From a virus, in the IMG/VR virus record IMGVR_UViG_3300038393_002515: 64,000 nt of DNA; one strand, written 5' to 3'. This document shows, one piece after another, positions 28,040 to 58,321 of the stretch; positions within the stretch are counted from its first letter, which is position 1, and each line of letters begins with the position of its first letter. The notes beneath the pieces were generated by a model. The model was not told where the DNA came from. It did not search any database and saw only the letters and a list, made by a program, of their open reading frames with translations. The translations under genes were made by a program, and so were the position numbers.

Positions 28040-28067
28040 CAGCTGACCGACGCGACTGGTGGGTGGC

Positions 28068-29594
28068 ATGCCCGACATCTCTTCTGCGACGTACACGCCG
28101 CCCGGCGTGTACGTCAGCGACGAATCGACTCCCACGGTCACCCCGCGCGGTGTGTCGACCACGACCGTCACGGTGATCGGCCCGGCCCTGGGCTACCAGA
28201 CGACCAGCGAGGTCGTCACCGTCAACTCCGCCTCGGCGACCGCGCTGTCGCAGCGCGGCGTGTACACCACGGCCGTCGTGGGCCCGCCTGCCATCGCGGC
28301 GCCCGTGGTCACGACCCTGTCGGGCACGGCCATGGTCTACAACACCGACTACACCTTCGTGGTGACCGCCGGTTCCGGCGGTGCGGCGACGGCGGTCACC
28401 TCGATCAAGCGGCTGTCGGCCAGCCAGAGTGACCTGACCCAGCCGTCGCCGAACGGTCTGAAGGACGGCGACCAGGTCCGGGTGACGTACGCGTTCACCA
28501 ACGCGACGTACTACGAGCCGACCGAGTTCGAGGACTACGACCAGATCGTGGCCACGTACGGGCAGGCGATGGTGACGACCGCGCCGACGAGCCCGACCGC
28601 GTCGCAGGTCGCCTCGGCGCTGACGCTGGCGGCGAAGATCGCCCTGGAGAACGGCGCGGCCAGCGTCCTGTGCGTCGCCACCAACCCGTCGGCCGGGGAC
28701 TACAGGGCGCAGCTGCAGGCGGCGTACAGCAAGCTGGAGGCGGACTACCGGGCGCAGATCCTGGTGCCGCTGTTCGTGGACGGTGCGTACAACGCGCACA
28801 CGCCGACGAACGTGGCGAACCTGCTGGCCGACGTCAAGAATCACTGCGAGACGGCGGCGGCCGACGGCTACGGGCGCCTGGCGTTCACCGGCCTGGCCAC
28901 GAACTACGACAACACGGTCGGTCACGACCAGCTGGCGCTGGCGCAGGCCAGCAAGCGGCTGGTGCTGTGTTACCCGAACCGGCTGTTGGCCTTCAACTCG
29001 GCTGTGAACGCCTCTACGGAGGTCGACGGCTTCTACCTGGCCGCCGCGATGGCCGGGCGTCTGGCGCGGAACGCGGTCGCGCGTGGGCTGACGAACCAGT
29101 CGCTGACGTCGTTCACCGGTCTGCCCGCGACGATCGCGCAGGCCATGACCCGGACCTTCCGTAACAACCTGTCGAAGTCCGGTGTGAACGTCGCGGAGAT
29201 CAACCAGAACGGCCAGCTGGTCGCCCGGCACGGCGTCTCGACGAACATGTCGTCGATCCTGACGCAGGAGATCTCGCTGACCCGGATCGGCGACGTCCTG
29301 CTGCAGATGATCCAGGTCGGCATGTCCAACGCCGGGCTGATCGGTGAGCCGATCACGGCCGAGACAACGATCAACGTGAAGTCGGCGCTGATCGGCCTGC
29401 TGGAGCAGGCGGTCTCCGACTCGATCATCGTCTCCTACGCGAACGCGCAGGTGCGGCAGCAGTCGGCGGACCCCTCGGTGATCGAGGGGACCTTCAGCTA
29501 CAAGCCCCCGATCCCGATGAACTACGTCGTCGTGAAGTTCGCCGTCGACCTGACAACCGGCGACACGACCACGGAGACGGACCAGAACGCCTGA
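28068..29594 (+). CDS. Tail sheath protein
   Basis: N-terminus MPDISSATYTPPGVYVSDE carries the PGVYV motif typical of contractile-tail sheath proteins. 508 aa, followed by the tube and chaperone genes. Confidence 0.85.
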   Translation: MPDISSATYTPPGVYVSDESTPTVTPRGVSTTTVTVIGPALGYQTTSEVVTVNSASATALSQRGVYTTAVVGPPAIAAPVVTTLSGTAMVYNTDYTFVVTAGSGGAATAVTSIKRLSASQSDLTQPSPNGLKDGDQVRVTYAFTNATYYEPTEFEDYDQIVATYGQAMVTTAPTSPTASQVASALTLAAKIALENGAASVLCVATNPSAGDYRAQLQAAYSKLEADYRAQILVPLFVDGAYNAHTPTNVANLLADVKNHCETAAADGYGRLAFTGLATNYDNTVGHDQLALAQASKRLVLCYPNRLLAFNSAVNASTEVDGFYLAAAMAGRLARNAVARGLTNQSLTSFTGLPATIAQAMTRTFRNNLSKSGVNVAEINQNGQLVARHGVSTNMSSILTQEISLTRIGDVLLQMIQVGMSNAGLIGEPITAETTINVKSALIGLLEQAVSDSIIVSYANAQVRQQSADPSVIEGTFSYKPPIPMNYVVVKFAVDLTTGDTTTETDQNA

Positions 29595-34948: not shown

Positions 34949-37432
34949 GTGCCGAATTTCGTCCTGGCCCCGGGCGTGAAGGCATACATCGCGACGGAGA
35001 AGCACGGAATCATCGACGTCTCGGACGACCTTGTCGAGGGCTCGATGACGCGCCGGTCGGACGGCGTCAGCTCATTCAATTTCAGCCTGCAGAACACCCG
35101 GCGGAAGTACGACGGCGTGCTCACCCCGAACGACCGCATCTCGGTGCAGATGAAGCGGCTGAAGTGGGTGCAGGTCTTCACCGGCTACCTGAACAAGGTG
35201 CCGCTCGTGACGGCCTGGCCGCGTGTCGTCCACCTGACCGCTTCGTGCTCGCTGAAGCGGCTGCAGTACTGGTACTGGGACTCCCACGCCGAGGCGTCGC
35301 AGGCCATGGTGCGCCAGGCCCTGGAGGACGCGGGGAAGGACACCGGTGTCTCCGACGGCGGCATGACGAATGTCGCGCTCACCGTGCTGAAGAAGGTCGT
35401 CGGCTGGCCCGAGTCGAAGGTCCACATCGCCCGTATCCCGGGCACCTGGTTCTCCGTCGTCGAGACCCTGGCCAAGCAGATCAACGCCCAGCTCGACGAC
35501 GCCGACGAGATCGCGCGTGCCCTGTTCGAGCAGCTTGGCACCGCGTCCGTCGGCGGTACGGGCGGTGCCGACGCCAGCTCGCTGAACGGCACCTACGGCG
35601 GGTTCAACAACCCGGACCAGAAGGCCAACGCCGCGATCATCTACAACGTCGGCAAGGAGAAGGGCGGCTCCGGCCGCGACTGCATCATCGCGATCATGGT
35701 GGCGATGCAGGAGTCAGGCCTGCGCAACCTCAAGGGGGGCGACCGGGACAGCGCAGGCCTGTTCCAGCAGCGGCCCTCACAGGGCTGGGGTACGTACGAG
35801 CAGGTGACGGACCCTCGGTACGCGTCGGGGAAGTTCTTCGACGCCCTCTTCGAGGTCAAGAACCGCAACAGCATGGAGCTGTGGCAGGCATGCCAGGCCG
35901 TGCAGCGCTCCGGGGTCCCGAGGGCGTACGCGAAGCGCGAGAAGCCTGCGACCGCCATGGTGCGCGACCTGGAAAAGGGCGGCGGGAAGTACGGGGACCT
36001 CAAGTCGAAGCCCCAGGGCACCATCTCCGGCGTCGACCTGGCCCAGCTCGCGGTGAACTTCTGCCAGAAGTACCCGAACATCCCGTACACCCAGAAGTAC
36101 GGCGGCACCCAGCTCGACGTACTCTCGCAGAACCCCCCGCCCGGCCTGGACTGCTCCAGCTTCGTGCAGGCCATGTACCTGCGCGCGTTGGGCTCGCTGT
36201 ACGGCCTGCCGCGCGTGGCGTCCGCGCAGTACGACGCCTGCAAGAAGGTGTCGGTGGAGAAGGCGCTGAAGACGCCCGGGGCGCTCGTCTTCAAGGGGTC
36301 CTCGCCGGACGGCATCTACCACGTCGAGATGAGCCTGGGTGACGGCAAGAGCACGATCGGCGCGCACCGCGCCGGGGCCAAGCCGCACGACGTCGGCATC
36401 AACCCGCCGTCGGCGCCGTCGTACTGGGACTACGGCGGCTTCCTGCCTCGCGTCGCGTACACCACCGGCGCGGGCACGGTCATCTTCGAGGGGTCGGACG
36501 GCACCAGCGGCGGCGTCAACGACATGAGCGGCGATCCCGGGGTCGAGCTGTCCACCGGCGCCGACGCGCCTGGGTACAACCCCAAGGACCCGTTCGACAA
36601 GATGTTCGGCGACAACGCCTGGGCGCCGATCTCGACGGCGGAGAACGACCCGAACTACTTCCTGGCCCAGGCTCTGGCCGGACCGCGTGCGCTGCTGAAC
36701 GACCAGCCGCTGCTGCCTTACCTGAAGAACCTGTTCAACTCGACGATGCGGAGCTTCTGCAGCGCACCGAATGGTGACCTGATCGCCTGGTACCCGGACT
36801 ACTACGGGATGTGGGGCACGGCCGCCAAGATGGTCATCCAGCCCATCGAGGTGCAGGACTTCGAGGTGTCCTGGTCGGACGACTACATGGTCACCCACCA
36901 GTTCGTCGTCACCTCGCCGCAGACGCGAAACCTCTTCGACCCGGCGACTGGAACCGTGCAGCAGTCCGTCGCTGACTCCGTCCTGGCGAACATGGCCGTC
37001 TTCACCACGGGCGTCGTCACCGTCGACTTCCCGGGCGTGTGGAAGGCCCTGTTCGGGATGGACATGACGGAGAAGCAGGCGAAGGCGTACGCGGACTCGA
37101 TCAAGCAGCGGTTCGGTGCCCGGCCGGACTACCAGCAGCTCCCTGGTCTCGTCGGCCCGAAGGCGCAGCTGTTCACTGCGATCTTCCTGTTCATGCGGCA
37201 GTTCGCCTTCCAGTACCAGGCGTCCATTCCGTTGACCTTCATGCCGGAGCTGTGGCCGGGCATGCTGCTGCAGTTCCCGGCCTTCAACTTCCAGGCGTAC
37301 GTCACGACGGTGACGCACAGCTTCAAGTTCGGCGAGGGCGGTTACTTCAACACCTCGGTCAGCATCGCGGCCCCGGCCCGTCTCACCGGTGACAAGAAGC
37401 TGCTCGGCCTGCCGATGGCGGGAGGCAACTGA
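34949..37432 (+). CDS. Baseplate hub (gpD/gp27-like N-terminus) carrying two cell-wall hydrolase domains including NlpC/P60
   Basis: N-terminus resembles late-control-D/hub proteins. Middle region has ...MVAMQESGLRNLKGGDRDSAGLFQQRPSQGWGT (muralytic-domain-like). NlpC/P60 signature GLDCSSFVQAMY...GIYHVEMSLGDGKSTIGAH. Confidence 0.8.
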   Translation: MPNFVLAPGVKAYIATEKHGIIDVSDDLVEGSMTRRSDGVSSFNFSLQNTRRKYDGVLTPNDRISVQMKRLKWVQVFTGYLNKVPLVTAWPRVVHLTASCSLKRLQYWYWDSHAEASQAMVRQALEDAGKDTGVSDGGMTNVALTVLKKVVGWPESKVHIARIPGTWFSVVETLAKQINAQLDDADEIARALFEQLGTASVGGTGGADASSLNGTYGGFNNPDQKANAAIIYNVGKEKGGSGRDCIIAIMVAMQESGLRNLKGGDRDSAGLFQQRPSQGWGTYEQVTDPRYASGKFFDALFEVKNRNSMELWQACQAVQRSGVPRAYAKREKPATAMVRDLEKGGGKYGDLKSKPQGTISGVDLAQLAVNFCQKYPNIPYTQKYGGTQLDVLSQNPPPGLDCSSFVQAMYLRALGSLYGLPRVASAQYDACKKVSVEKALKTPGALVFKGSSPDGIYHVEMSLGDGKSTIGAHRAGAKPHDVGINPPSAPSYWDYGGFLPRVAYTTGAGTVIFEGSDGTSGGVNDMSGDPGVELSTGADAPGYNPKDPFDKMFGDNAWAPISTAENDPNYFLAQALAGPRALLNDQPLLPYLKNLFNSTMRSFCSAPNGDLIAWYPDYYGMWGTAAKMVIQPIEVQDFEVSWSDDYMVTHQFVVTSPQTRNLFDPATGTVQQSVADSVLANMAVFTTGVVTVDFPGVWKALFGMDMTEKQAKAYADSIKQRFGARPDYQQLPGLVGPKAQLFTAIFLFMRQFAFQYQASIPLTFMPELWPGMLLQFPAFNFQAYVTTVTHSFKFGEGGYFNTSVSIAAPARLTGDKKLLGLPMAGGN

Positions 37433-37665
37433 TGATGGGTCCGGGGAACGCCGCTACGCACGGGATCGGCTGGACGGTCAAGCAGGTCCGGGTCCGCGAG
37501 CTGATAGCGGGCAAGAAGCTCGCTCTGTGCGTGGACACCGAGGGCACGCAGATCGAGGTCACCACGGCCATCCACCGCACCGGCATCACGCCGGTTGTCG
37601 GTCAGGACTGGCTGGTCGACCGCACATACGGGGTATGGAGCTTCGCCGCCTGGCTGGACGTGTAA
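37432..37665 (+). CDS. Small baseplate-associated protein (spike/OB-fold-like, positional)
   Basis: 77 aa. TGATG overlap with the hub gene. Confidence 0.55.
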   Translation: MMGPGNAATHGIGWTVKQVRVRELIAGKKLALCVDTEGTQIEVTTAIHRTGITPVVGQDWLVDRTYGVWSFAAWLDV

Positions 37666-37686
37666 AAAACTGACGGCCCGGAAACC

Positions 37687-37702
37687 GTGACATGCATGTC
37701 AC
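37687..37702. repeat. Palindrome copy 1: GTGACATGCATGTCAC (parS-like candidate)
   Basis: 16-bp perfect palindrome, 22 nt after the + gene stop (37665). Confidence 0.9.
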
Positions 37703-37720
37703 AGAATCCGAGCCGTCCAA

Positions 37721-37744
37721 ATCTGTGACATGCATGTCACAGAT
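37721..37744. repeat. Palindrome copy 2: ATCTGTGACATGCATGTCACAGAT (parS-like candidate)
   Basis: 24-bp perfect palindrome with the same 16-bp core, 7 nt beyond the parB-like stop (37751). Confidence 0.9.
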
Positions 37745-37750: not shown

Positions 37751-38635
37751 TCAGCCGGTGAGCAGGCCTTCGGCCTCGGCCACCCTCTTCTTCATGTCCT
37801 CGACGTACTCCTCGGCGGACTGCCGGTCGACCTTGACCAGCTCCTGGAGGAGCGCCAGGTCGATCTTCCCGGCGGCACGGGCCTCCTTCAGGCGGACGTC
37901 GACAGGACGCGGCTGGCGAGCGGTGATCTCCTTGGGCCCTTTGGCGGCCAGGGCGGTGGCCTCCATGAGGCGGCGGAGGTGCCTCACCGCCGAGATGGTC
38001 ACCGGGCCCTCCTTTGCCAGCTCGGTGTACTTGGCGCGGAGGAGGTCGTGGTCGTCCTTGCCAATGGTGTACAGCTCGTCCACGACGTTCTGGGCCAGCG
38101 GCTCGGTCAGCAGGCCATCGAGCGCGGTGTAGACGACGTGATGCTTGATCGCGCGGTAGTAGGTGTGCCGCTCGATGCCGATGGAGTGGGCGAACTTCTC
38201 GACGGACTTGTGGCCGCCCGCCTTGTAGCTGCCCTTGGCCTGGACCTCGGCGAGCCAGCGGCCGGTGAGGGTCCAGTAGTTCTTCTCGATCTCGGCGAAC
38301 CCGCTGCCAGCCGCCTCGCCGATCTTGCGGATCTGGCGTTCCGCGTGCGCGAGGTGCTGCAGGTCGCTGATGTCGTCCGGCGCGGGGACGTACTGGAAGG
38401 GGTCGGCGGGCTCCGGGGAGTGGACGATCCCTTCAAGAGGCGCCTGAGCGACCTGGTGGGGCACCTGCGGCTCATCGGCCGGTTCGCTCACAGCGGCGGC
38501 GGCAGCGGCTTCCAGCTCATCGTCCTCGCCTCGGCGGGCCTGAGAGCTGACGGCCTGAGCGGCGGCCAGCGCCGCTGCGGCCCGCTTCTGGGCGGCGGTC
38601 TGCTTCGGCTTCGGTGCGACAGTCACTCGGCCCAT
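37751..38635 (-). CDS. Partition-operon partner protein (ParB-analogue/centromere-binding candidate) with an HTH
   Basis: Translationally coupled to the ParA gene (TGATG at 38633-38637). Ala-rich acidic N-terminus and an HTH-like segment KSVEKFAHSIGIERHTYYRAIKH. No classical ParB GxxRxxA box seen. Confidence 0.6.
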   Translation of the reverse strand: MGRVTVAPKPKQTAAQKRAAAALAAAQAVSSQARRGEDDELEAAAAAAVSEPADEPQVPHQVAQAPLEGIVHSPEPADPFQYVPAPDDISDLQHLAHAERQIRKIGEAAGSGFAEIEKNYWTLTGRWLAEVQAKGSYKAGGHKSVEKFAHSIGIERHTYYRAIKHHVVYTALDGLLTEPLAQNVVDELYTIGKDDHDLLRAKYTELAKEGPVTISAVRHLRRLMEATALAAKGPKEITARQPRPVDVRLKEARAAGKIDLALLQELVKVDRQSAEEYVEDMKKRVAEAEGLLTG

Positions 38636-39432
38636 CAGGCGGCCAGTCCCTTCATGAGGTGGCGGAACAGCAGGCCGAACTCTTCGAGGTGGCCTCGCTT
38701 CGGGGTGGTCTCCCAGGCGCGCGGGTAGTCCGGGGAACCGCTGATCTGGAACTCCTTCGGCACGACGGCTGCCTTAACCCGGGAGGGGTCCTCGGCTTTG
38801 ACGATGGCCTCCAGGACGGGGCGCTGCTCGTCGGCGAGCGTGTTGTTGCCGGAGCACTTCACCAGGAAGACCGAGACGGCGAGATCCGGGTTGGCCTTGG
38901 TGCCCTTGGCTGCCTGGCGGATCGACGCCTTGATGCGGGAGATCTCGAAGCCGGACGGGGCGACGGGGAGGATCACCATGTTGGCGACCTTGCACATCTC
39001 CCAGTACGTCTCCTTGCCTGCGCCGCCGATGTCGACGATGACGACCTGGTAGGACTTCTTGAGTTCCTCGATCACGTCGTCGAGGTCCGGTCCGTCTTCG
39101 TCCTTGGGGTCGTAGTTGACGAGGTCGAAGGGGACGTGCTCGGGGGCGGGGTTCCCCTCGTCGTCGACTCGGTTCTCGCGGATCCGGTACCAGTTGTCGA
39201 CCGTCTGGGAGTTGTCGTCGGTGTCGACCACCGCAACCTTCAGGCCGAGGAGGATGGACAGGTACAGCGCCAGGAAGATCGCGCTGGTCGTCTTGCCGGT
39301 GCCTCCCTTGAGGACGCCGATCCCGATGACGAGGCAGCCGTTCTCGTCGAGCCACGCGAAGATCTCCTCGCGCGACGCGGCCTGTGCCATCACCTTCTTG
39401 TGCTGTTGTCTGGGGAGCGTAGAAGTCTTCAC
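38635..39432 (-). CDS. parA: ParA/Soj-family partition ATPase
   Basis: Deviant Walker A VLKGGTGKTTSAIFLA, then VVDTDDNSQ and VIVDIGGAG boxes. Start placed at GTG 39432 (SD AGGAAGG 6 nt upstream); ATG 39390 is an alternative. The listed start 39552 would overlap the divergent gene. Confidence 0.8.
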   Translation of the reverse strand: MKTSTLPRQQHKKVMAQAASREEIFAWLDENGCLVIGIGVLKGGTGKTTSAIFLALYLSILLGLKVAVVDTDDNSQTVDNWYRIRENRVDDEGNPAPEHVPFDLVNYDPKDEDGPDLDDVIEELKKSYQVVIVDIGGAGKETYWEMCKVANMVILPVAPSGFEISRIKASIRQAAKGTKANPDLAVSVFLVKCSGNNTLADEQRPVLEAIVKAEDPSRVKAAVVPKEFQISGSPDYPRAWETTPKRGHLEEFGLLFRHLMKGLAA

Positions 39433-39504
39433 TCCGGGTCCCTTCCTAGGCGGTTGTCGCCCCACATCTTGCCGCACCGGCGTTGCCCGGGTGCGCAGGA
39501 CCCC

Positions 39505-39539
39505 GTGTTTCACCCCCGATTTGAAGCGGAAGGGGGTGA
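39505..39539 (+). promoter_or_regulatory. Bipartite late-gene element copy 15 (GTGTT-N23-GGGGTGA, degenerate 5' box)
   Basis: TCACCCCC 39510-39517 pairs with GGGGGTGA 39532-39539. SD GGAGGTGG and ATG 39551 follow. Confidence 0.45.
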
Positions 39540-39550
39540 GGAGGTGGCTC

Positions 39551-39979
39551 ATGAAGACGCTGGCTCTCGTCGGCGGTGACCTGGCACTGGGGGATGGCGG
39601 CTACCGGACGCTCACCGGCGCGGCCCGCATCCGGCAGGACCTGGCGCTCGCGCTCGCCGAGCCGTACGGCCACGACACCTACCACCCGCAGTTCGGGTCG
39701 GTGCTGGCCGCGCACATCGGTGAGCCGCTGACGCCGGAATTGGAGCTGCTGGTCCGCGCGGAGGTCGTGCGGGTGGTCCAGCAGTACGTGGACGGCCAGC
39801 AGGCTCAGATCGCAGCCGACGCCCTGTCCGGTTCCCGGTCACGGTTCAGCTTCCAGGATGTGGTGCAGTCGGTGCAGTCCATCAGTACGGACATCCAGTA
39901 CGACACGATCAAGGTGACCATCGCGCTGAAGACGCAGTCCGGCGGTACGGTCCGAGTGCTGCGGACGGTGAGCACCTGA
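39551..39979 (+). CDS. Baseplate wedge protein, gp25/GPW-like
   Basis: 142 aa. MKTLALVGGDLALGDGGY...IRQDLALAL...G...P.FGS pattern typical of the GPW/gp25 family. Precedes the J-like gene. Confidence 0.7.
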   Translation: MKTLALVGGDLALGDGGYRTLTGAARIRQDLALALAEPYGHDTYHPQFGSVLAAHIGEPLTPELELLVRAEVVRVVQQYVDGQQAQIAADALSGSRSRFSFQDVVQSVQSISTDIQYDTIKVTIALKTQSGGTVRVLRTVST

Positions 39980-39981
39980 TT

Positions 39982-40001
39982 CTGTGACATGCATGTCACA
40001 G
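39982..40001. repeat. Palindrome copy 3: CTGTGACATGCATGTCACAG (parS-like candidate)
   Basis: 20-bp perfect palindrome identical to the core of copy 2, 3 nt after the gp25-like stop. Confidence 0.9.
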
Positions 40002-40135
40002 GTCCGCTGAATCGGTATGGTGGTGCGCCTCGGGCGACGCGCGTCCGATTCAGCAGAAGACCTCACCGCTCCGAACCGGGTGACGCCGGGGAGCACCGGG
40101 GTCGGCGCGGCCCCCAGTTCCAGCTGGAGGCAGAA

Positions 40136-40172
40136 GGCGGAGTCCACCCATAGGGACTCCGCCTTCATTTTT
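40136..40172 (+). terminator. Canonical rho-independent terminator
   Basis: GGCGGAGTCC (40136-40145) / GGACTCCGCC (40154-40163), followed by TTCATTTTT. Confidence 0.75.
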
Positions 40173-40226: not shown

Positions 40227-42077
40227 ATGGGTGTTTCCAGGGACGACATCGTCTCGCAGATGCGTGACGCGCTGCTGGTGTCCGACCCGGAGCTGGACAC
40301 GTCCATCGGCACCCCGGTGCGGAAGATCCTGGACGCGGTCGCAGCGTCGCTGGCCGACGCCTACGTCGAGAACCACCTGCTGTCGTACGCCTACGACATC
40401 GACAGCAAGACGGACGCCGACCTGGACTCCTTCTGCCAACTGTTCGGCATCGCGCGGATCGCGGCCCGGCGCTCGGTCGGCACGGTGACCTTCTCCCGGA
40501 CCGGCGACCTGACCCCGACCGTGTTCATCCCGGTCGGCACGGAGATCGCGTCCTCGTCGGACTCCTCGGTCGTGGTCACCACGGTGGTCGGCGGCACGCT
40601 CATGCCGGGCGCCTCGTCGGTCACGGTGCCAGTCCAGGCCGTGACGGCCGGTCCGGAGGGCAACCTGGGTGCGGGGATGGCCACCCAGATCACCTCCCCG
40701 ATCCAGGGCGTCAACACCGTCACGAACACGGCTGCCTTGACCGGTGGCCTGTCCCGGGAGACCGACTCGGAGCTGCGGACCCGCTGGAAGTCGACCGTGT
40801 TCCGGTCGCTTGCCGGTACGGAGCAGATGTACCGGGGCGTGGCCCTGGACGACACCGACTGCTACGCGGTGTCCGTCGTCGGCTCCTCCCGGACACGATC
40901 GGAGATCCTGCAGGTGCCCGCGACCGGCAACACGGTCTGCCAGATCACGGACGCCCGCTACATCTACTCCTCGCCGGTGCAGGTGACGAAGTCCGACGGC
41001 ACGCCGCTGATCAAGGACTACGACTACACGTGGATCCCGTCGAATCCGCCCGCCATCGCCGGACTGTCGGCGTCGTTCCCTGCGGCCGGTGAGCTGCTCA
41101 CGGTCGAGTACCAGTACCTGCCGGTAGTGAGCCGGAACGACCCGGCGAACAACATCACGAACCGGGTGGACATTTTCGTCGGCGGCACCCGGGCGCAGTC
41201 GGCCCAGACGTCGCTGGTGTTCAAGCAGACGAAGAGGTTCCAGACCGTCTCGACTGTGGACCTGTACACCGGGGCGTGGCTGCGGTCGGACCAGACACGG
41301 CCGGACGCGAACAACGTCTTCGTGCCGCTGCCGTTCGGGCCGATCGTGACCGTGCCGTCCACGATGTCGGTCGCGGGCACGACGTACGGTCTGGCTACGA
41401 CGGCACACCCGCTGGGTACGGTGGCCAACGGCGTGACGTACGCGTACACGGTTGTCCATGAGGACACGGTGGACGGCTGGACGCCGACCTCGCGCTTCGG
41501 CCTGGAGTGGCACCGCACCTACCTGCCCGCCGACAACTCGCCGGTCTCCGTCGGCGGTAACGGCGACTACACCTACAACGAGGTACCCGCCTCGGTGCAG
41601 GACGCGGTCAACCGGTGGCGGTTGACAGGGATCGACGCCCAGGTTCACCAGGCAAAACAGCGCTGGCTGCGGTTCGCGCTGGGCGTGATGTACACGGCGT
41701 CGTCGACTGGGTCGGTTGACTCGGTCCAGGACGCCATCCGGTCCGCCTTGAGTGACTACCTGAACCGGATGGACTTCAACTCCAACGTCCAGATCAGCGA
41801 CGTCCTCACAGTCATCCACCAGGTACCCGGCGTGGACAACTGCCGCCTGCTCAACGGCGCGGACGTGACCGGCTACACCTCGGCCAACCCGAACGCGTCG
41901 ATCGTGGGCGTCCAGCAGATCGCTCCGAACGCGGCTCCGAACTCCGCCGCGCTGTTCTCCCACGTCGACCCGGCAACCGGCCGGGCCAAGGACATCTACT
42001 TCCGCGACGACGAACTGCCCGTGCTCGGAGGCGTGGTCTTCAAGACCCTCGCCCGCAACTCCTTCGGGGTGCTGTGA
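40227..42077 (+). CDS. Baseplate J-like protein
   Basis: 616 aa. N-terminal third matches the Baseplate_J pattern (...GTPVRKILDAVA...DLDSFCQLFGIARI.A..SVGTVTF...VPVQAVTAGPEGN...ALTGG...ETDSELR.R). Confidence 0.8.
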   Translation: MGVSRDDIVSQMRDALLVSDPELDTSIGTPVRKILDAVAASLADAYVENHLLSYAYDIDSKTDADLDSFCQLFGIARIAARRSVGTVTFSRTGDLTPTVFIPVGTEIASSSDSSVVVTTVVGGTLMPGASSVTVPVQAVTAGPEGNLGAGMATQITSPIQGVNTVTNTAALTGGLSRETDSELRTRWKSTVFRSLAGTEQMYRGVALDDTDCYAVSVVGSSRTRSEILQVPATGNTVCQITDARYIYSSPVQVTKSDGTPLIKDYDYTWIPSNPPAIAGLSASFPAAGELLTVEYQYLPVVSRNDPANNITNRVDIFVGGTRAQSAQTSLVFKQTKRFQTVSTVDLYTGAWLRSDQTRPDANNVFVPLPFGPIVTVPSTMSVAGTTYGLATTAHPLGTVANGVTYAYTVVHEDTVDGWTPTSRFGLEWHRTYLPADNSPVSVGGNGDYTYNEVPASVQDAVNRWRLTGIDAQVHQAKQRWLRFALGVMYTASSTGSVDSVQDAIRSALSDYLNRMDFNSNVQISDVLTVIHQVPGVDNCRLLNGADVTGYTSANPNASIVGVQQIAPNAAPNSAALFSHVDPATGRAKDIYFRDDELPVLGGVVFKTLARNSFGVL

Positions 42078-43411
42078 TGGCAGACGACCAGCTCCACCAA
42101 GGCGACGGAACCTTCGGAACGGCCGTCATCTCCGGCGGCCTGATCCCGTTGCAGGCCGACGTCACCGTGCCGCAGTCCACCGCGCTGGCCAGCGGCACGG
42201 GCATGCTCGTGGCCGACACGGCCGTCGCCGAGCAGCTGCGGCACTTCCCCGAGGAGGTCTACGACCTCCGGCCCACCTCGCACCTGGTCCGTCTGATGCA
42301 GGCTCTCCTCGGGGACTCGGGCGTCGGCCAGCTCCGCAAGCGGCTGCTGGTGGCCCAGATGCAGAGCCTGTCCGCCTCCGGGGCAAGGTTTTTCGATCTC
42401 GACCGGTTCTACGGGGCGATCTTCAACGCCACCCGGAACGACGCCGAGGTCCTGCCGATCAACCCCATGGAGACGTCGGCCGCCACGGCCGCCGAGTGGG
42501 ACTCGATCGAGGCCGCCGATGCCTCCTTCCGGGACCGGATGACCGCGCTGGCCAAGGCAATTGCCATGGGCGGCACCGTGCCGGGCCTCAAGGCGGCCGC
42601 CGAGGCCATCACCGGCGTCGAGGCCGACGTCTACGAGTCCTGGGCCCTGATCGACGCCGCCGGAGACACCGACGAGACCGCACACACCTGGGAGTGGATG
42701 GAGGGCGGCACCTGGGGGGACTACGAGGGCGAGATCTGGGGTGCGCTGGAGGGCACACCGTTCTACGGCCGCTCCGGCTCCCTGACCCGCAGCGAGGTCC
42801 TGGTCCGGGTCAACCGCGACTACCCGACCACTCCGGAGGGCCGGGCGCAGCAGGCCAGCGACGAGTCGGCGCTGGTGCGCGTCCTTGAGCGGCTCAAGCC
42901 CGCTCACCTGCTTCTCACGGTGGACACGCAGGGCACCTCGGCCCTCGTGGCACGCGGAATCGCCGGTGTGCGCGCGGACAGCGAGAACTGGGAGATCGTC
43001 CCTCAGGTCACCCCGAGCCAGGTGCCGACCAGCACGAACCCCTACCCGCTGTCGGCGATCCAACAGCAGGACGGCGTGGACCCGAGTTCTCCCCGCGTGC
43101 TGCCGCGCCCGCCACTGACCGCCCGGCTCGGAGACCAGTGGTCCTACGGACAGCAGGTCCCCACCTGCCGCTCCTACGCAGTCGCCCCGGATGACACGGC
43201 CGACTTCACTACGCCCGGAACCGTCCCGGACGCCGACCTCGGCTCGATTGACCAGACGGTTGTCTGGCGCGACGGCACCTCGACCGTCTACCGGGCCTCG
43301 CTCGGCGCGCTCGACCCGCTGCTGAGCCATGCCGCCCGCGCCGGAGGCGACGGCGTGCTGATCGCCAATCCGTACTCCGGCGACCGGCGGACGGTCCTTA
43401 CCACTGACTGA
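42074..43411 (+). CDS. Baseplate protein (gpI-like position)
   Basis: 445 aa, overlapping the J-like stop (GTGATG). Start is GTG 42074 or ATG 42077. Confidence 0.65.
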   Translation: MMADDQLHQGDGTFGTAVISGGLIPLQADVTVPQSTALASGTGMLVADTAVAEQLRHFPEEVYDLRPTSHLVRLMQALLGDSGVGQLRKRLLVAQMQSLSASGARFFDLDRFYGAIFNATRNDAEVLPINPMETSAATAAEWDSIEAADASFRDRMTALAKAIAMGGTVPGLKAAAEAITGVEADVYESWALIDAAGDTDETAHTWEWMEGGTWGDYEGEIWGALEGTPFYGRSGSLTRSEVLVRVNRDYPTTPEGRAQQASDESALVRVLERLKPAHLLLTVDTQGTSALVARGIAGVRADSENWEIVPQVTPSQVPTSTNPYPLSAIQQQDGVDPSSPRVLPRPPLTARLGDQWSYGQQVPTCRSYAVAPDDTADFTTPGTVPDADLGSIDQTVVWRDGTSTVYRASLGALDPLLSHAARAGGDGVLIANPYSGDRRTVLTTD

Positions 43412-43423: not shown

Positions 43424-43693
43424 GTGAAGAAGTTCAACGGCTCCGCTAAACAGCGGAGAAAGGCGAAGTCGCAGGTCTATCACCTTCAGGAGGGGCGCTG
43501 CGCCGAGTGTCGGCGCTCCCTTGTGATCGAGCAGATGCGAATCACGCGCATCGACAACAGCACGAAGTCGTGCGCACGGGCGAACCTGCGCGTGGTGTGC
43601 GAGCTGTGCCTGGAGTTCATCGACCGAGAGCGCCACGAAGCGGCGATGGCACGGCGTGCGGCACGTGAGCAGGAAGCCGTACCTCCCGCGTAG
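43424..43693 (+). CDS. Small HNH-like zinc-ribbon protein (catalytic His apparently missing)
   Basis: CAEC...NLRVVCELC spacing as in HNH ββα-Me fingers, but RITRID sits where H-x-x-H is expected. Visibly more A/T-ending codons than its neighbours. Weak SD. Confidence 0.45.
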   Translation: MKKFNGSAKQRRKAKSQVYHLQEGRCAECRRSLVIEQMRITRIDNSTKSCARANLRVVCELCLEFIDRERHEAAMARRAAREQEAVPPA

Positions 43694-43697: not shown

Positions 43698-43733
43698 GCT
43701 GTTCTTCAACCCTCCGGCGTCACCAAGGGGTGC
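43698..43733 (+). promoter_or_regulatory. Bipartite late-gene element copy 17 (GCTGTT-N23-GGGGTGC)
   Basis: CCCTCCGGCGTC 43710-43721 pairs perfectly (12 bp) with GACGCCGGAGGG 43739-43750, which contains the SD. The loop is ACCAAGGGGTGCAAGGA. ATG is at 43763. Confidence 0.65.
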
Positions 43734-43762
43734 AAGGAGACGCCGGAGGGAGCCACACCGAC

Positions 43763-46700
43763 ATGGCCGACCTGTACGCCAACTACGCCGCGCTGGCCGC
43801 CGCGCGGCAGATCGGTGTGGACTACCGGATCCTGGTCCGTACGCCTCCGGGCTCCCGGCTGGCGCACATCGCCATCCACGGTGGCGGCATCGAGCCGGGC
43901 ACCACGGAGGTCGCGGACTACCTGGCCGGGTCAGCCAGCCGGTTCTACTCCTTCGACGGCATGCTGACGTCGGGAAACAGCGACCTACACATCACCTCGA
44001 CGAACTTCGACGAGCCGCAGGCCCTGGACCTGGTCGCGGCCGCCGACTACGTCATCTCCTGGCACGGCGCGGCCGGGGCCGAGCCGATCACTTACGTCGG
44101 CGGCCTGGACACAGAGACGGCTGAGCGGATCAAGGAGGCTCTGGAGCAGGCAGGATTCACGGTGTCGCCTGCCAGCGAGGAGCTGAACGGCGGCGACCCG
44201 GCGAACATCTGCAACAAGGGCACCCGGCTCATGGGCGTGCAGATGGAGCTGTCGCTGGGCCTGCGGCAGTCCTTCTTCGAGGACTTCACCCGGCCCGGCC
44301 GGGACAGCGGCGCGCGCACCTCGGTCTTCTACGCCTACATGGTCGCGATCCAGACGGCACTCAACGGCCTGGACGTGCCGGGCAAGGCGATCGGGTCGGC
44401 GTGGAAGGGCCGGGTTGCCCAGCCCGTGACCGGCACCGGGTCGGCGTCCGGAGACTTCGGTATTCCGGCCCTGGCGCCGTTGACCGTGGACGGCATGCCG
44501 CTTGACTCGCTCAAGGACGCGTTGCGCCTGTCAACTCAGCGGCAGGCGTCGGGCAACATGGAGCGGTTCTGGTCAAGTGCCCCCCGCGACAACGGTGACC
44601 CGGTGCGGGAGGTGTTCGAGTTCTCGCTGGCCACGGCCCGGCCGGTCAACCGCGTCTCGTTCTCTCTCGCGCGGTTCCCGCAGCGGGCCTGGGTGCAGTA
44701 CCGCGACGCCGACGGGCTGTGGCGGCCGCTGCAGAACGCGCGCCTGGGCGGCCCGGTCCAGATCAGCATCCTGGACTCGGTCCCGGCGGTGATCCCGGCC
44801 GGTGTGGCCGACGACGTGAAGCTGCACCCGCAGCACTTCGGTGCCGGGCACTGGATGGCGCAGGAGGTCGACGTCCAGCCGGTCACGGCGAGCCGGTTCC
44901 GGATCGTCATGACCCGGCTGCCGTCGTCGGCGTACCCGCGCGGCTCGGACAACCAGCCGGTTGCCTACTCACTCGGGGTCAAGGACGCGCTGGTGTCCTA
45001 CCGCGCCTCCAGCTTGACCGACCTGCCGTGGCTGCCGCAGCAGGACGCCGAGCACACGGTGCCGATTGCCGGGTCAACCGACCTGCTCGGCTCCCAGGTT
45101 GACTACCTGCTCCGGCGCAACCGGGCGGACAACCTGGTACCACCCGCGAGCGGCGTGTGGCGTTGCGCACCGCAGCCGGTCCCGAACGCCGTGGTGAGCC
45201 TGTACCTGGACCTGCGGACCTCGGACGGCAGCGCTCAGGTCGTGGACCGGCTCTACGTTGACCCGGTCACGTCGGGTGTGTCGTGCAACCTGTACTACAC
45301 CGACGCCACGGTGGTGCCTGAGCGGTTCGAGCCGTCCGACGCGCCCTTGACCTTGCCTCTTGTCCGGGCAAGCACGGACACCCCGGTCGTTGACAGCGAG
45401 GGCGTGCTCTTTGACTCGGCCGACTCCTACCTCGACGTGGACAACAGGGCCTGCCAGTTCGACCCGGGCCAGCCGTTCCTGATGGGCATGGTGGTCTACC
45501 CCCAGTTCACCTCCGGCGACACCGGTCAATTCACCGTCCTGGACACCCCGGCCATGACCATCTGGTTCGAGGCCGGGTCGGTCAAGGTGCGCCTGGGTGA
45601 CCGCACAGTGGAGATGGACCCGGTCACGTTCGGAGTCAACGAGCGGATCCCGCTGGCGGTTGCCTACGACGGGTCGACGTTGACCGTGCGCACCCCGTGG
45701 TCAACCCGGATTCAGGAGGCAACTCACGTCGTTGCCCAGGCACCGCCGAACGTGATCCGGCTCGGCGGCCCGCTCTCGGGTCCGGGCGGCTCGATCCGGT
45801 TGCGCAACCTCTTCCTCGCGCTCGGGCGCGCCGCCGACGTCGACACCATCGAGGCCTACTGGGACGACCCGGCGGCCTACGCCCTCAGCCCCGGCTACGG
45901 GCAGGACGGGACCGCGCACACCAGCGCCAGCGCGATCTTGCGGATGGACCCCAGCCTGATCACGGCTGGGCAGGAGTCGGTGTGTCCGTGGGGGCTGATC
46001 GGTGGCCCGCCGGTCGCTCTGGACGACCTGGTGTGGACACCGGTCCCCGGGGACTTCACCCTGCGCAAGGGGCTGATGAAGTTCCGGCCGATCAAAGCCC
46101 GGCATCTGAAGATGGAGTTCACCAACCTCCAGCCGATGGTGCTGACGCCGTCGCAGGCCTCGCCGCTGGTGGAGACCAGGCTGTTCCCGGCCGACACCGG
46201 GCAGGGGTCCAGCATCGTCGCGTCCGGCGCGACCGTCTCCGGCGCGGCCCCGGCGGGCGCCCGGGTCGCCACCGAGCAGGGCGCGGTCTACCAGTACGTG
46301 GACGCCAACCGGATCGTGTCCTCCACGTCCAGCAGCGCCCCGTACCTGCCCACGGAGGCCCTGTACGCGCCGGATCCGCTCGCAGCGCAGCAGCTGCGCC
46401 GCTCGGGCCAGCGGTTCCCGTACATGCCGCTGCCGGGCACCAAGGCGCCGCGCTTCACCAGCACGGGAGTGCACCGCTACCACGTGGTCCAGCTGGCCAT
46501 GGACACCAAGGTCGGCTACACCGTCGCTCTGTCCCAGGTCCTGGCCTACCTGGCCGACCCGGTCGCGCAGCGCGACACCGAGCAGTACGTCGAGCTGTTC
46601 CACGACACGGCCTACCTGTCCGGCTACGACGCGTCCCAGCAGGGCGGATGGAAGCACACCGGCACTGCGATGGTCACCACCGATCAGCCGCCGTCCCAGG

Positions 46701-47944
46701 GTGCGCAGGCCGTCTCCAAGACGTTCGTCAGCAAGCGCCGTGTCCTGGCGGTGCAGTTCGCCGCGCAGACCTCCCAGCCCAAGCAGCTGGTCGCCGATCC
46801 GGACTTCGACGACCCGAGCCTGCACTTCTGGCGGCCGGTCGGTGACGCCACGGCGGAGTCCTCGACCCAGTACGCCTCCACGATCGGCCGCATGGCCAAG
46901 GTCACGCGTGGCCACGCGGCGTCCTCCTGGGGCTCCCTGGAGTCCCGCTTCCCCACCTGGGGGGACATCGAGGACTCCGACCCGCTGCCGAACCGGCCGC
47001 TGTGGTGGGAGATCGAGAACGCCACCAGCTCGGCCGACTTCGGCGGCATCGAGTCGCTGTGGCCGGTGAACCCGGCGCCGCGCGGCCGCCTGTACGCGGC
47101 GGCCCGGGTCTACACCGACGCCCCGCTGGCCGCCCCACTGCTGCTGCAGCTCGTCAACGGCGACGGCCGGATCATCGCCTCGACCGCGCGCAGCTTCGAC
47201 TCGGCGCAGGTCGGCGAGTGGTACGTCGGCGCCACCATCGACACCAGTCCGCCCAACCCGCTCACCTGGGACACCGTGTCGGCCCACGACACTCGCACGT
47301 GGTCGGACATGGAAGCCCTCGGCATGTGGGGTGACGTCGCCCAGGACTGGGACGTGGATGACGTCCACGATGTCCGCGTCCGCGTCATCCAGGAGGGCAG
47401 CGCGGGCACCGGCGTGTGGCACGTCGACAGCCTCGCCATCTTCAACGACCCGATCGTCTGGGAGATCTCCCGCGACGGCGGCGTGAACTGGTACGAGATG
47501 ATCGACATCAAGAACAACCCGCGCGGCGTGTTCCAGTTCCCGGATCTGCCCAACACCGACCGCTCCGGCGGCACTCAGCTGCGGTGGAGGGCCACCGGCT
47601 ACGCCCCGGGTCTCTCGCTGTCCTCGGTCGTCCTGCGGCCGTGGTACGCCACGCTGACCGGCGCGGTCCCGTACCAGGACACCCTGCAGGCGGCTGGGGC
47701 GGCGAGTTCGCTGGCCGACTACTACCCGCCGGTCGATTCCGATCCGCTGTTCCAGGGGTGGAAGAGCCCTATCCCCGAGGACTGGTGGCTGGCGTTCCGC
47801 CAGTGGATGCAGCAGAACGCCCCGAAGACCGACCCGCTGCCCGCGATCACTCTGCCCGAGGCGGTGGCCGAGGGCACCAACGAGGGCGCTCCGCCCGCGC
47901 TGGCTCGCCACGTCCTGTCCGACGCCTTCGTCCTCAACCGCTAA
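43763..47944 (+). CDS. Giant tail fibre/host-recognition protein with an N-terminal poly-gamma-glutamate-hydrolase-like (DUF867/PghP-type) domain
   Basis: N-terminal ~175 aa: IHGGGIEPGTTEVA...LHITSTNFDEP...ISWHG...VGGLD...LNGGDPANICN...GVQMELS..LRQSFF matches the PghP/UPF0714 signature blocks. The remaining ~1200 aa are beta-rich. Confidence 0.8.
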   Translation: MADLYANYAALAAARQIGVDYRILVRTPPGSRLAHIAIHGGGIEPGTTEVADYLAGSASRFYSFDGMLTSGNSDLHITSTNFDEPQALDLVAAADYVISWHGAAGAEPITYVGGLDTETAERIKEALEQAGFTVSPASEELNGGDPANICNKGTRLMGVQMELSLGLRQSFFEDFTRPGRDSGARTSVFYAYMVAIQTALNGLDVPGKAIGSAWKGRVAQPVTGTGSASGDFGIPALAPLTVDGMPLDSLKDALRLSTQRQASGNMERFWSSAPRDNGDPVREVFEFSLATARPVNRVSFSLARFPQRAWVQYRDADGLWRPLQNARLGGPVQISILDSVPAVIPAGVADDVKLHPQHFGAGHWMAQEVDVQPVTASRFRIVMTRLPSSAYPRGSDNQPVAYSLGVKDALVSYRASSLTDLPWLPQQDAEHTVPIAGSTDLLGSQVDYLLRRNRADNLVPPASGVWRCAPQPVPNAVVSLYLDLRTSDGSAQVVDRLYVDPVTSGVSCNLYYTDATVVPERFEPSDAPLTLPLVRASTDTPVVDSEGVLFDSADSYLDVDNRACQFDPGQPFLMGMVVYPQFTSGDTGQFTVLDTPAMTIWFEAGSVKVRLGDRTVEMDPVTFGVNERIPLAVAYDGSTLTVRTPWSTRIQEATHVVAQAPPNVIRLGGPLSGPGGSIRLRNLFLALGRAADVDTIEAYWDDPAAYALSPGYGQDGTAHTSASAILRMDPSLITAGQESVCPWGLIGGPPVALDDLVWTPVPGDFTLRKGLMKFRPIKARHLKMEFTNLQPMVLTPSQASPLVETRLFPADTGQGSSIVASGATVSGAAPAGARVATEQGAVYQYVDANRIVSSTSSSAPYLPTEALYAPDPLAAQQLRRSGQRFPYMPLPGTKAPRFTSTGVHRYHVVQLAMDTKVGYTVALSQVLAYLADPVAQRDTEQYVELFHDTAYLSGYDASQQGGWKHTGTAMVTTDQPPSQGAQAVSKTFVSKRRVLAVQFAAQTSQPKQLVADPDFDDPSLHFWRPVGDATAESSTQYASTIGRMAKVTRGHAASSWGSLESRFPTWGDIEDSDPLPNRPLWWEIENATSSADFGGIESLWPVNPAPRGRLYAAARVYTDAPLAAPLLLQLVNGDGRIIASTARSFDSAQVGEWYVGATIDTSPPNPLTWDTVSAHDTRTWSDMEALGMWGDVAQDWDVDDVHDVRVRVIQEGSAGTGVWHVDSLAIFNDPIVWEISRDGGVNWYEMIDIKNNPRGVFQFPDLPNTDRSGGTQLRWRATGYAPGLSLSSVVLRPWYATLTGAVPYQDTLQAAGAASSLADYYPPVDSDPLFQGWKSPIPEDWWLAFRQWMQQNAPKTDPLPAITLPEAVAEGTNEGAPPALARHVLSDAFVLNR

Positions 47945-57088: not shown

Positions 57089-58321
57089 TCAGGCTGCGCA
57101 GGCGAGGGCATTCCGACGAAGCAGCTCGTCGTAGTCCGGCTCGTCAACCACCAGCAGGAACCGGCCATCTGACGCCACGACCAGGTCCTCGATGATCTCG
57201 CCGGTGGCCGGATTGAACGCGCAGCCGTCGACCACCCAGCTCTCCTGAACCTCATCCCCCCGGATCGGCACCACGTCGGGCATCCGGCGCTCCCGCAGGC
57301 GGGGGACGACCATGCCGCGCCAGACCGCCCGCTGGTCCTTGTGGGCCTGCTGACGGCGCCAGGCGGTCCCGTACGTGCCGATCTCGGCCGCCACGGTGTC
57401 CCAGCCCTCCCAGGCCCCCGCGAGGGCCTCAGCGGCCGTCTCAGTGAGCGCCCACAGGCCGTCCTCACGAGCAACCAGGCCGTACTCGGCAAGGCGCTTG
57501 AGGTGCCGGTACGCGGTCGCCTGGCTGACCATGGCGGTCTCGGTCAGCTCTGCCACGGACTGGGGATCCCGCAGGTGAAGGGCGGCCAGCATCTTCAGGG
57601 AGGAGGCACCCAGGCCCCGGTGGGCGAAGGCGTCCAGGCTCATCAGACGCTCGATGACGGCACCGTCCAGTTCACCGTTTCTCACCGTCGACACATTCGA
57701 CTGTGCCCCCCCAGGCTGCGCCCCCCTGAGGGTGTGTCGCTCGTGAGAACCGTCTCGCAGGCACCAGGTGGAGCCCTTGTCGGCGGTGCCGACCTCAACG
57801 AGACGGAGCCAGGCCCAGGAGACCAGGCGCTTGGCGGCCAGGTAGGCCGTGCGGGCGGTGCACCCGGCGATCTCGGCCGCCTCACGGTGAGACAGGGTGT
57901 ACATCCGCCCACCGGCCTTCTTCGCGGCGTGCCAGTGAGCCATCAGCACACGCAGAGCGGTGGAACCAGCCAGGCCACGCCAGCAGTTGGCGGAGGCGAT
58001 CTTGTCGCGGAGGGCAACGAGATCGACAATCGCGTCCTGACGGGAGCCGATCGGGGTGCTGTAGCGAACGTGTCGGCGGGCGCGCTCCCAGATCTTGTCC
58101 AGGCGCCGGTGGGCCGAGGTCATGCTCATCCCGCGCACGAAGCTGCCGGGACGCGAGGGCCAGTCGATCATGGCCTCGATGAACTGCTTACGGGTCCAGC
58201 CGTAGCGGACGCATCCAGCGGCAGCGGCGGCCAGGACGGCGTGCTGGTGCTGGGCCTTGGTCCTCTTGCTGGACTTCGAGGTGGAGGAGCCGTAGCGCAG
58301 GCCGGTGTCGCCGTCGGTCAT
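57089..58321 (-). CDS. DNA-binding protein with two winged-helix (MarR/ArsR-like) modules; candidate replication initiator or regulator
   Basis: HTH segments LSHREAAEIAGCTARTAYLAAKRLVSWAWL and SVAELTETAMVSQATAYRHLKRLAEYGLV. Start set at ATG 58321 because codons upstream (to 58609) lose the G/C third-position bias. Repeat copy B lies in-frame in the linker. Confidence 0.6.
   Translation of the reverse strand: MTDGDTGLRYGSSTSKSSKRTKAQHQHAVLAAAAAGCVRYGWTRKQFIEAMIDWPSRPGSFVRGMSMTSAHRRLDKIWERARRHVRYSTPIGSRQDAIVDLVALRDKIASANCWRGLAGSTALRVLMAHWHAAKKAGGRMYTLSHREAAEIAGCTARTAYLAAKRLVSWAWLRLVEVGTADKGSTWCLRDGSHERHTLRGAQPGGAQSNVSTVRNGELDGAVIERLMSLDAFAHRGLGASSLKMLAALHLRDPQSVAELTETAMVSQATAYRHLKRLAEYGLVAREDGLWALTETAAEALAGAWEGWDTVAAEIGTYGTAWRRQQAHKDQRAVWRGMVVPRLRERRMPDVVPIRGDEVQESWVVDGCAFNPATGEIIEDLVVASDGRFLLVVDEPDYDELLRRNALACAA
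57689..57739. repeat. Inverted-repeat element copy B (reverse orientation, inside a CDS)
   Basis: The reverse complement CGACACACCCTCAGGGGGGCGCAGCCTGGGGGGGCACAGTCGAATGTGTCG is ~90% identical to copy A. Translated as ...HTLRGAQPGGAQSNVSTV... in the winged-helix protein. Confidence 0.85.

Follow-up and report, generated by a model that had tools for sequence, protein, structure and literature searches.

A proposed two-module partition cassette within the baseplate genes of ~155-kb Streptomyces phage-plasmids

Extrachromosomal temperate prophages with parABS systems have been described among Cluster A mycobacteriophages and Gordonia phages (RedRock, Miko and others; PMC7157519), and the centromere-binding protein of these systems has diversified into several families, presumably as an escape from incompatibility (PMC7157519). 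They are the closest described actinobacteriophage analogue of the locus analyzed here, a reverse-strand cassette of a parA gene and a partner gene in a 64-kb stretch of viral DNA (64,000 nucleotides, IMG/VR record IMGVR_UViG_3300038393_002515; the whole stretch is called the window below). Both are systems of a ParA, a (here proposed) centromere-binding protein and DNA sites, and in both two clusters of sites flank genes. However, the Cluster A phages are siphoviruses of ~52 kb in which the cassette replaces the integrase in the lysogeny region, while the window comes from a myovirus of ~155 kb and its cassette is located among the baseplate genes. Cluster A systems have ParB-type proteins and parS arrays of 8-bp direct repeats, while the window has an orphan helical partner and palindromes of 16-20 bp; additionally, ParA of the window's kind has itself diversified, and its reassortment is independent of the DNA-binding module. 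The cassette does not belong to the Cluster A parABS systems: a tblastn search of 50,697 phage records gave no match of its ParA, its sites are palindromic and it lies among baseplate genes.

Partition systems of type Ib, such as ParF-ParG-parH (TP228) and delta-omega (pSM19035), share with the window a small Walker ParA without N-terminal helix-turn-helix (HTH), a downstream co-expressed (here proposed) centromere-binding protein and short repeated DNA sites, and the flexible, arginine-containing N-terminal peptide of the window's partner would be expected to stimulate the ATPase. The differences concern the partner, which is a small ribbon-helix-helix protein in type Ib and a 294-aa protein, all-helical in its model and with a predicted HTH, in the window, and the sites, which in the window lie downstream of the operon and at a remote position instead of in the promoter; the window's parA has no evident operator upstream. 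The type Ia systems of P1 and P7, like the window, come from plasmid prophages of contractile-tailed phages and have parS downstream of the gene for the centromere-binding protein. Work on P1/P7 hybrids has reportedly found ParA recognition (N-terminus) and parS specificity (rest of the protein) to be separable, as is proposed for the window's partner. P1 differs from the window in its large ParA with N-terminal HTH, its ParB/Srx fold and its Cre-lox dimer resolution, and no sequence or fold relationship was detectable between P1 ParB and the window's partner.

About 30 related loci were recovered from IMG/VR, GTDB genomes and PLSDB with the Baseplate J-like (J) gene as the recovery marker, and are given L numbers below where they have to be told apart. 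Both reverse-strand open reading frames (ORFs) of the window are real genes according to their codon-position bias (GC content is 0.90 at third positions vs. 0.41-0.44 at second positions). The ParA translation contains GVLKGGTGKTT (deviant Walker A with the signature lysine), VAVVDTDDN and VVIVDIGG (Walker A' and Walker B aspartates). It scores above the Pfam gathering cut-offs for MipZ (40.2, cut-off 20.7), CbiA (35.3, cut-off 25.4) and AAA_31 (34.7, cut-off 27), and matches phrog_164, 'ParA-like partition protein' (2.9e-20); the nearest solved structures are ParF of TP228 (the best PDB match), a ParA (5u1g), Soj and MipZ. The top NCBIfam family is NF041546, ParA_partition (69.8 bits, E = 2.2e-19), and since this score is far below the equivalog cut-off of 180 bits, the protein belongs to a divergent ParA lineage. 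It has no N-terminal HTH or regulatory domain in its 251-265 aa, Walker A starting from about residue 40, features that would make it a type-Ib-like (small) ParA. The lower length corresponds to ATG 39390, the start chosen by automated gene callers; GTG 39432 is most likely the actual start, because this codon and its ribosome-binding site (RBS) are kept in relatives.

The stop codon of parA and the ATG of the partner gene overlap as TGATG, and because of this overlap, which is the same in 13/13 variant loci examined, the two genes are considered translationally coupled. Motifs, Pfam, PHROG and the overlap all confirm what an initial annotation of the window, made from the sequence alone, had claimed, namely a ParA with KGGTGKTT that is translationally coupled to a partner gene on the opposite strand. 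The same annotation had called the partner parB, for which no support was obtained, as neither a ParB domain nor a ParB relative was found. There was no family match for the partner in Pfam, PHROG, NCBIfam or PADLOC, and the partners of types T1, T2 and T3 (see below) and of the outgroup matched nothing in Pfam (ParB/Srx, PF02195, included), NCBIfam or PHROG. A profile search of the PDB returned only noise, and a fold search of the model against PDB and BFVD gave nothing at E <= 0.001. Among 1.84 billion representative proteins, the profile search obtained only 16 members; the three divergent members whose context was inspected occupy the same slot in related elements.

The AlphaFold2 model of the partner (mean predicted local distance difference test score, pLDDT, 78) is entirely helical, with a helix at aa 14-30, a disordered acidic linker at 31-65, a core at 91-231 with pLDDT >90, and C-terminal helices. 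An HTH is predicted at about aa 142-171 (nt 38123-38212), inside the confident core, and an invariant ARRGE motif is found at aa 33-37 (nt 38525-38539). Two known families were ruled out for this protein: the ParB family, by the absence of a ParB domain and of any sequence or fold match in the PDB, and the ribbon-helix-helix proteins (ParG, omega), by the all-helical model and the length of 294 aa. The partner would therefore be a functional analogue of ParB/ParG; it is a member of neither family, and it adds a proposed centromere-binding protein without detectable relative.

A perfect 20-bp palindrome, CTGTGACATGCATGTCACAG, occurs in three copies at the locus and nowhere else in the 64 kb (0.01 copies expected; three copies were reached in 0/100 shuffles). 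Palindrome 1 is enclosed by an imperfect inverted repeat (37672-37717), and palindrome 3 lies 2.2 kb from palindromes 1 and 2. Across at least 13 loci the type of palindrome co-varies perfectly with the type of the partner body: T1 partners go with CTGTGACATGCATGTCACAG, T2 partners with GTGAGACCCA(G)TGGGTCTCAC and T3 partners with GTGTGGCCCAGTGGGCCACAC. The predicted recognition helix is likewise type-specific (ERHTYYRAIKHH in T1, TKQDVYRLRRAV in T2 and TRDDVYRVRRAV in T3). The 16-bp core of T1 was invariant in 18/18 copies from 9 non-redundant loci, although identity at third codon positions in the adjacent gene is only 72%; the outer stem of palindrome 1, which varies by compensatory changes over the same divergence, provides an internal control for this invariance. 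Paired palindromes 36-38 bp apart recur in T1, T2 and T3 loci. Where an intact third copy is present after the gp25-like gene and the partner is known, the copy was of the partner's type in all six loci, across reassorted ParA modules; the copy after gp25 in L020 is of a non-matching type and degenerate. In the entire 154-kb plasmid pRLB1-9.1, a relative described below, there are two copies of the T1 core, both adjacent to the partner gene. From these sequence comparisons, the palindromes are probably partner-binding sites, often embedded in terminators or doubling as such.

Comparison of the variant loci revealed two exchangeable modules. Module 1 consists of palindromes 1 and 2 and the putative DNA-binding body of the partner, and Module 2 of the N-terminal peptide of the partner and ParA (and its presumed promoter). 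ParA occurs as types a1, a2 and b, and the partner body as types T1, T2, T3 and further ones. The N-terminal ~35 residues of the partner follow the ParA type in 13/13 loci, independent of palindrome type, with the signatures ...KPKxTAAxKRA... for a1, ...LTARE[KR]R... for a2 and ...[KR]FGGRG...AAAR... for b. The remainder of the protein follows the palindrome type, and the invariant ARRGE lies between both parts. For {a1, a2, b} x {T1, T2}, all six combinations were found. Nucleotide identity profiles placed the breakpoints at the stop of the small gene (~37,650), at ~38,480-38,540 (ARRGE/linker) and at ~39,540, upstream of the RBS of gp25. The two modules joined at ARRGE and their six combinations strongly support the recombination hotspot at which the initial annotation had hinted. 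They also correct its picture of the borders: the junctions do not coincide with the palindromes, since the cassette's right edge directly precedes the gp25 RBS, whereas the third palindrome does not bound the cassette and is a separate optional insert after the gp25 stop. Most plausibly, module swapping has been selected as it avoids partition incompatibility between co-resident relatives. With at least three ParA types and at least six DNA-binding/palindrome types at one junction, the locus represents a natural experiment in partition specificity, in which alignments reveal the proposed ParA-recognition peptide, the candidate arginine motif ARRGE, the predicted recognition helix and the proposed cognate sites; it would offer compatible, orthogonal stabilisation cassettes for low-copy Streptomyces vectors.

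In the divergent region between parA and gp25, the elements GAAACACGG and GCGGCAAGAT are conserved in all ParA types (13 loci compared). They were considered as recurrent phage promoter elements and rejected, as both are unique to this locus in the window. A sigma-70 consensus scan of the locus gave no match.

The window has a GC content of 68% throughout, with no compositional break at the cassette, and its structural region is of the myovirus type (major head protein, sheath, tube-like protein, hub, gp25, J and tail spike). It represents ~40% of a genome of ~155 kb and is collinear with positions 127,061-154,158 and 1-33,810 of pRLB1-9.1 (NZ_CP041653.1), the circular 154,158-bp plasmid of Streptomyces sp. 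RLB1-9, at 79-94% nucleotide identity. This plasmid, the closest annotated relative of the window, encodes an HK97 capsid and other virion genes. Its configuration was examined using pulsed-field gel electrophoresis and is circular and extrachromosomal (PMC6753273), and CP041653 was entered in a survey supplement as a 100% prophage-predicted plasmid, without further analysis (PMC10023795). It shares with the window the cassette slot, the T1 partner and the T1 palindromes, and differs by a beta-type ParA (~40% identical) and by having no third palindrome; it has been deposited and discussed only as a plasmid.

At least 20 Streptomyces isolates have homologues of ParA or the partner, and the contigs that carry them are nearly always 148-158 kb long; a few of the cassette-bearing contigs are 122-239 kb, two are about twice the unit length and none is Mb-scale. 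The plasmid cg35 is a further extrachromosomal relative. The two long contigs, Ga0395903_0000032 (309,833 bp) and one of Streptomyces sp. NPDC048281 (303,881 bp), are ~2x the unit of 152-155 kb and may be dimers or concatemers, or may have arisen as artefacts in the assembly of a genome that is circular or terminally redundant. The element family is thus supported as an extrachromosomal replicon through its relatives, and the plasmid-like prophage lifestyle that had been proposed for the window holds for the family, by the collinearity with pRLB1-9.1 and by the stand-alone contigs in the isolates.

Two arguments that had been advanced for this lifestyle fared less well. The first, the lack of an integrase, stands for the window, in which (as ~40% of the genome) no recombinase or integrase was found, but pRLB1-9.1 has two tyrosine recombinases, encoded in a part of the plasmid that is not homologous to the window. 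Searches of metagenome contigs with these two proteins, by a method that detects close relatives only, gave no close relative in either scan, and they appear to be non-conserved accessory genes. Both lie in a reverse-strand accessory block at 66.6-77.2 kb of pRLB1-9.1 (L030 16624-27187), which also contains a pair of ATP-grasp genes for ribosomally synthesized and post-translationally modified peptides (tgmA and an MvdC/D-like gene), a Sco1979-family HTH regulator and a DUF397 gene. The second, a rep-like gene (57089-58321), encodes only a winged-helix protein with a marginal PHROG match (E = 5.5e-4), and neither iterons nor an origin were found beside it. No isolated phage of the window's clade was found in GenBank, and megablast of an 11-kb region against deposited phages gave no match, so that these could not serve for a synteny comparison; the closest deposited phages are Bxz1-like Cluster C mycobacteriophages, with a J-protein identity of 29%. 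The elements represent a widespread and so far undescribed family of ~155-kb contractile-tailed Streptomyces phage-plasmids, now deposited as 'plasmids' or anonymous contigs, and raise the issue of how a large plasmid prophage segregates in a multigenomic, sporulating host.

We consider it about 75% probable that the cassette is the active-partition module of a ~155-kb circular plasmid-prophage, a myovirus-type Streptomyces phage-plasmid. The partition function itself is what we infer; gene identities, translational coupling, co-variation, breakpoints, conserved position and the extrachromosomal state of relatives were directly observed. In the proposed mechanism, a ParF/Soj-like small Walker ATPase would be co-translated with the 294-aa all-helical centromere-binding partner. 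A dimer of the partner would bind the 16-20 bp palindromes through its putative HTH, and its N-terminal basic helix, together with the arginine motif ARRGE, would contact ParA and might stimulate the ATPase. The low-copy replicon could thereby be spread over the nucleoid(s) and reach daughter compartments or spores. Being antisense, with its own presumed promoter in the 118-nt divergent region and bracketed by putative terminators, the cassette would therefore be expressible in the prophage state independently of the virion genes. Recombination of the modules at the ARRGE/linker junction would yield many specificity combinations.

Several observations weigh against this proposal. No relationship of the partner to a known centromere-binding protein was detectable, and the HTH is a feature of the model only. 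The promoter region contains no palindrome, and autoregulation, as is typical of type Ib, is thus not evident. The window's own genome is known from metagenome contigs, and the evidence for an autonomous replicon comes from relatives, of which pRLB1-9.1 encodes the two tyrosine recombinases mentioned above (weakly Xer-like, at 67 and 74 kb). The other objections concern the palindromes. Those of types T2-T6 are flanked by A- and T-tracts and resemble bidirectional intrinsic terminators between convergent genes; most of them form stable hairpins, with about -19 to -23 kcal/mol for T2, T3, T5 and T6 (-6 for T4). The T2-palindrome loci have the same T-tract context as the terminator that follows gp25 in the window (40133-40166), and T2 copies at the gp25 3' end occupy exactly the site where other loci carry a T-tract only. 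The divergent loci L036, L038 and L039 show a single palindrome copy each. Co-variation of the adjacent copies with the 3' half of the partner gene could be simple linkage. In L019, an intact T2-type palindrome with A- and T-tracts (7676-7703) is kept beside a T1 partner; it lies just upstream of two T1 palindromes. A relic of module exchange, this hairpin shows that those of type T2 can remain where the cognate protein is missing.

These properties of the palindromes favor an alternative in which ParA and its partner form a partition pair and the palindromes are only bidirectional terminators or insulators, linked to the partner gene, with the true centromere elsewhere or of a different kind. 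We regard this as unlikely. The T1 copies have no T-tracts and fold weakly (-12 to -13 kcal/mol), and termination in the window would be provided by the separate hairpins with T-runs at 37673-37688 (-), the probable end of the parA-partner transcript, and 40133-40166 (+). The sequence of the T1 core stays invariant as the enclosing stem changes by compensation, and a terminator would not need duplicates at a fixed spacing of 36-38 bp. Across reassorted ParA modules, the remote copies agree with the partner type, and the recognition helix changes along with the palindrome. In the outgroup L040, which is the same element as L022 and was obtained as a 155,259-bp contig from an IMG genome, the palindrome GTTCCGCGCGGAAC has four copies (0.16 expected) in two clusters 7.2 kb apart (one at 465-525), so that a second, remote pair exists there as well, and the partner-adjacent pair of L040/L022 flanks a separate GC-rich hairpin.

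The partition proposal could be extended further. The palindromes bracket the cassette and the gp25 gene and lie on or beside terminators that separate late transcription units, and the partition complex might double as a chromatin-like insulator or silencer of virion genes, although we consider this quite unlikely. If true, partner-palindrome complexes could block read-through or silence baseplate expression in the prophage state, plasmid maintenance would be coupled to lytic repression, and it would be explained why the baseplate slot is kept clade-wide while its contents keep being swapped. The partner would then represent a new, structurally orphan class of centromere-binding proteins, in which a ParA-docking peptide and a DNA-reading body are plug-and-play modules.

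Alternatively, ParA and its HTH partner might have no part in segregating the phage genome and might instead act on the host, for example by disturbing its ParA/ParB-dependent chromosome segregation or its sporulation, exclude or ward off superinfecting phages, or regulate late genes. Partition-like genes of large virulent Bacillus phages have been suggested to affect host sporulation (PMC7969092), the nearest deposited phages (Bxz1-like, Cluster C, ~155-kb myoviruses) have no detectable ParA homologue, and the cassette is surrounded by structural genes instead of belonging to a lysogeny module. Such a role is nevertheless very improbable. Cultured isolates stably carry relatives in the form of circular plasmids (PMC6753273), and the cognate palindromes are present in cis on the element and at no other place in it. 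The shuffling of specificity by two modules is a prediction of selection against partition incompatibility. PADLOC gave no defence-system match for the cassette, and a defence reading is therefore unsupported.

The cassette lies in antisense between the hub/small gene and the gp25-like gene, within an otherwise contiguous baseplate block. That it interrupts contiguous baseplate genes was already claimed in the initial annotation and is borne out by L022 (65% J identity), in which no cassette is present at this position and the small gene is followed directly by the gp25 RBS, the uninterrupted arrangement. In L025, L026 and L028 (44-51% J identity) the cassette is also not at this position. In L040 a distantly homologous ParA-partner cassette, again antisense, occupies a different slot (5890-7760), upstream of the tape-measure region; the similarity between the L040/L022 partner and the window's is limited to the HTH region (E = 1e-6). 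Within the window's clade, flanking structural proteins are 76-100% identical to those of the window, while ParA is 38-88% and the partner 25-82% identical; gp25 lies outside the exchangeable cassette, and its identity within the clade is 76-100% regardless of cassette type. The further suggestion of a recent mobile insertion in this genome, bounded by the palindromes, to which the strand inversion, the palindromes on both sides and the four outgroups without a cassette at this position had pointed, is rejected on synteny and has hardly any probability left, because every relative with 74-100% J identity carries ParA and a partner (six or more partner types) in the same slot, base composition and codon bias of the cassette match the rest of the window, the right boundary is the gp25 RBS with palindrome 3 as an independent optional insert, and no transposase or recombinase is associated. 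On sequence grounds, the slot is conserved and its content rapidly exchanged.

The left side of the slot varies as well. The small gene encodes 77 aa in the window's subclade and 202-220 aa in divergent relatives (L022 8791-9445, L036, L038 and L039). In L017, L019, L020 and L035 there is 0.4-1.2 kb of extra sequence between the small gene and the palindromes, and the left junction is therefore variable too. The flanking hub, small, gp25-like, J-like and I-like genes are as previously described, and the features of the locus are listed in Table 1.

Table 1. Positions of the cassette, its proposed sites and neighboring features in the window.
Feature	Position	Strand	Evidence or remark
Major head protein	16987-18429		profile searches
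Tail sheath	28059-29594		profile searches
NlpC/P60 hub-like protein	34949-37432		profile searches
Small gene (77 aa), end of the upstream (hub) transcription unit	37432-37665	+	third-position GC 0.90; kept in all relatives
Terminator-like hairpin followed by TTTTTT	37673-37688	-	terminator scan; partly overlaps palindrome 1
Palindrome 1, proposed parS	37684-37705	.	core GTGACATGCATGTCAC at 37687-37702; nested in a longer hairpin
Palindrome 2, proposed parS	37721-37744	.	38 bp from palindrome 1; 7 bp beyond the partner stop
Partner gene	37751-38635	-	294-aa ORF; ATG overlaps the ParA stop
Putative DNA-binding body of the partner (~aa 52-294), all-helical in the model	37751-38480	-	AlphaFold2; part of Module 1
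Partner N-terminal basic peptide, ARRGE and start of the acidic linker	38480-38635	-	part of Module 2
ParA-family Walker ATPase	38635-39432	-	GTG 39432 start, 265 aa; KGGTGKTT at nt 39286-39309
Divergent intergenic region, 118 nt	39433-39550	.	parA RBS, presumed parA promoter, gp25 RBS
gp25-like baseplate wedge gene	39551-39979	+	phrog_2669, 1.7e-20
Palindrome 3, proposed second parS site	39982-40001	.	optional insert between the gp25 stop and the conserved TTTTGCTGTGCG
Intrinsic-terminator-like hairpin (13 pairs, ~-28 kcal/mol), then ATTTTTGCTGTGCG	40133-40166	+	ends the gp25 transcript before J
Baseplate J-like gene, right flank	40227-42077	+	Pfam Baseplate_J, 5e-26
DUF7297 (I-like) gene	42074-43411		profile searches

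The gp25-J spacer is a second insertion hotspot. In most relatives it is 63 nt long and is without the segment 40002-40132, a stretch of ~130 nt between palindrome 3 and the gp25 terminator that the window has in common only with L018 (68-83% identity) and that contains an inverted repeat (GCTGAATCGG...CCGATTCAGC). Other inserts are found in the spacer of L021 (~9810-9990) and L024 (~9410-9990), the latter with an additional stretch of ~400 nt and a possible reverse-strand ORF. One spacer insert resembles the 3' end of a reverse-strand tRNA (GGGGGTCGGCGGGGACTCGAACCCC). ARAGORN called no tRNA in the locus or the spacer inserts, and the tRNA-like fragment of L021/L024 was therefore rejected as a tRNA gene; it could be a remnant of an att site. 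Rfam gave no match for the locus and the spacer inserts.

Additional features were observed elsewhere in the window. Just upstream of the head genes, 12519-15794 (+) encodes a 1091-aa protein whose homologue in pRLB1-9.1 is annotated as 'ParB/RepB/Spo0J family partition protein'. Its only matches are Pfam DUF7178 and N-terminal protease/methyltransferase-like PHROG families, with no match in NCBIfam, and it may contain a ParB-like nuclease domain that has nothing to do with partition. On the reverse strand, an island of five genes (8711-12135) lies between the tail-spike and head genes and encodes one membrane protein of the DUF6545 / MAB_1171c family, the remaining genes having no family. The antisense islands at 8711-12135, 37751-39432 and 57089-58609 might hold the genes that are expressed while the element is carried. 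The segment 43413-43763, between the I-like gene and the gene of a 1404-aa tail protein, contains an 89-aa Cys-rich ORF (43424-43693, +; CxxC...CxxC) and has no counterpart in pRLB1-9.1. Cluster C mycobacteriophages often carry an HNH endonuclease directly after the J gene, and the Cys-rich ORF is possibly a small mobile HNH-like gene. The 1404-aa tail protein itself (43730-47944, +) has an N-terminal poly-gamma-glutamate hydrolase domain and is a possible host-envelope depolymerase.

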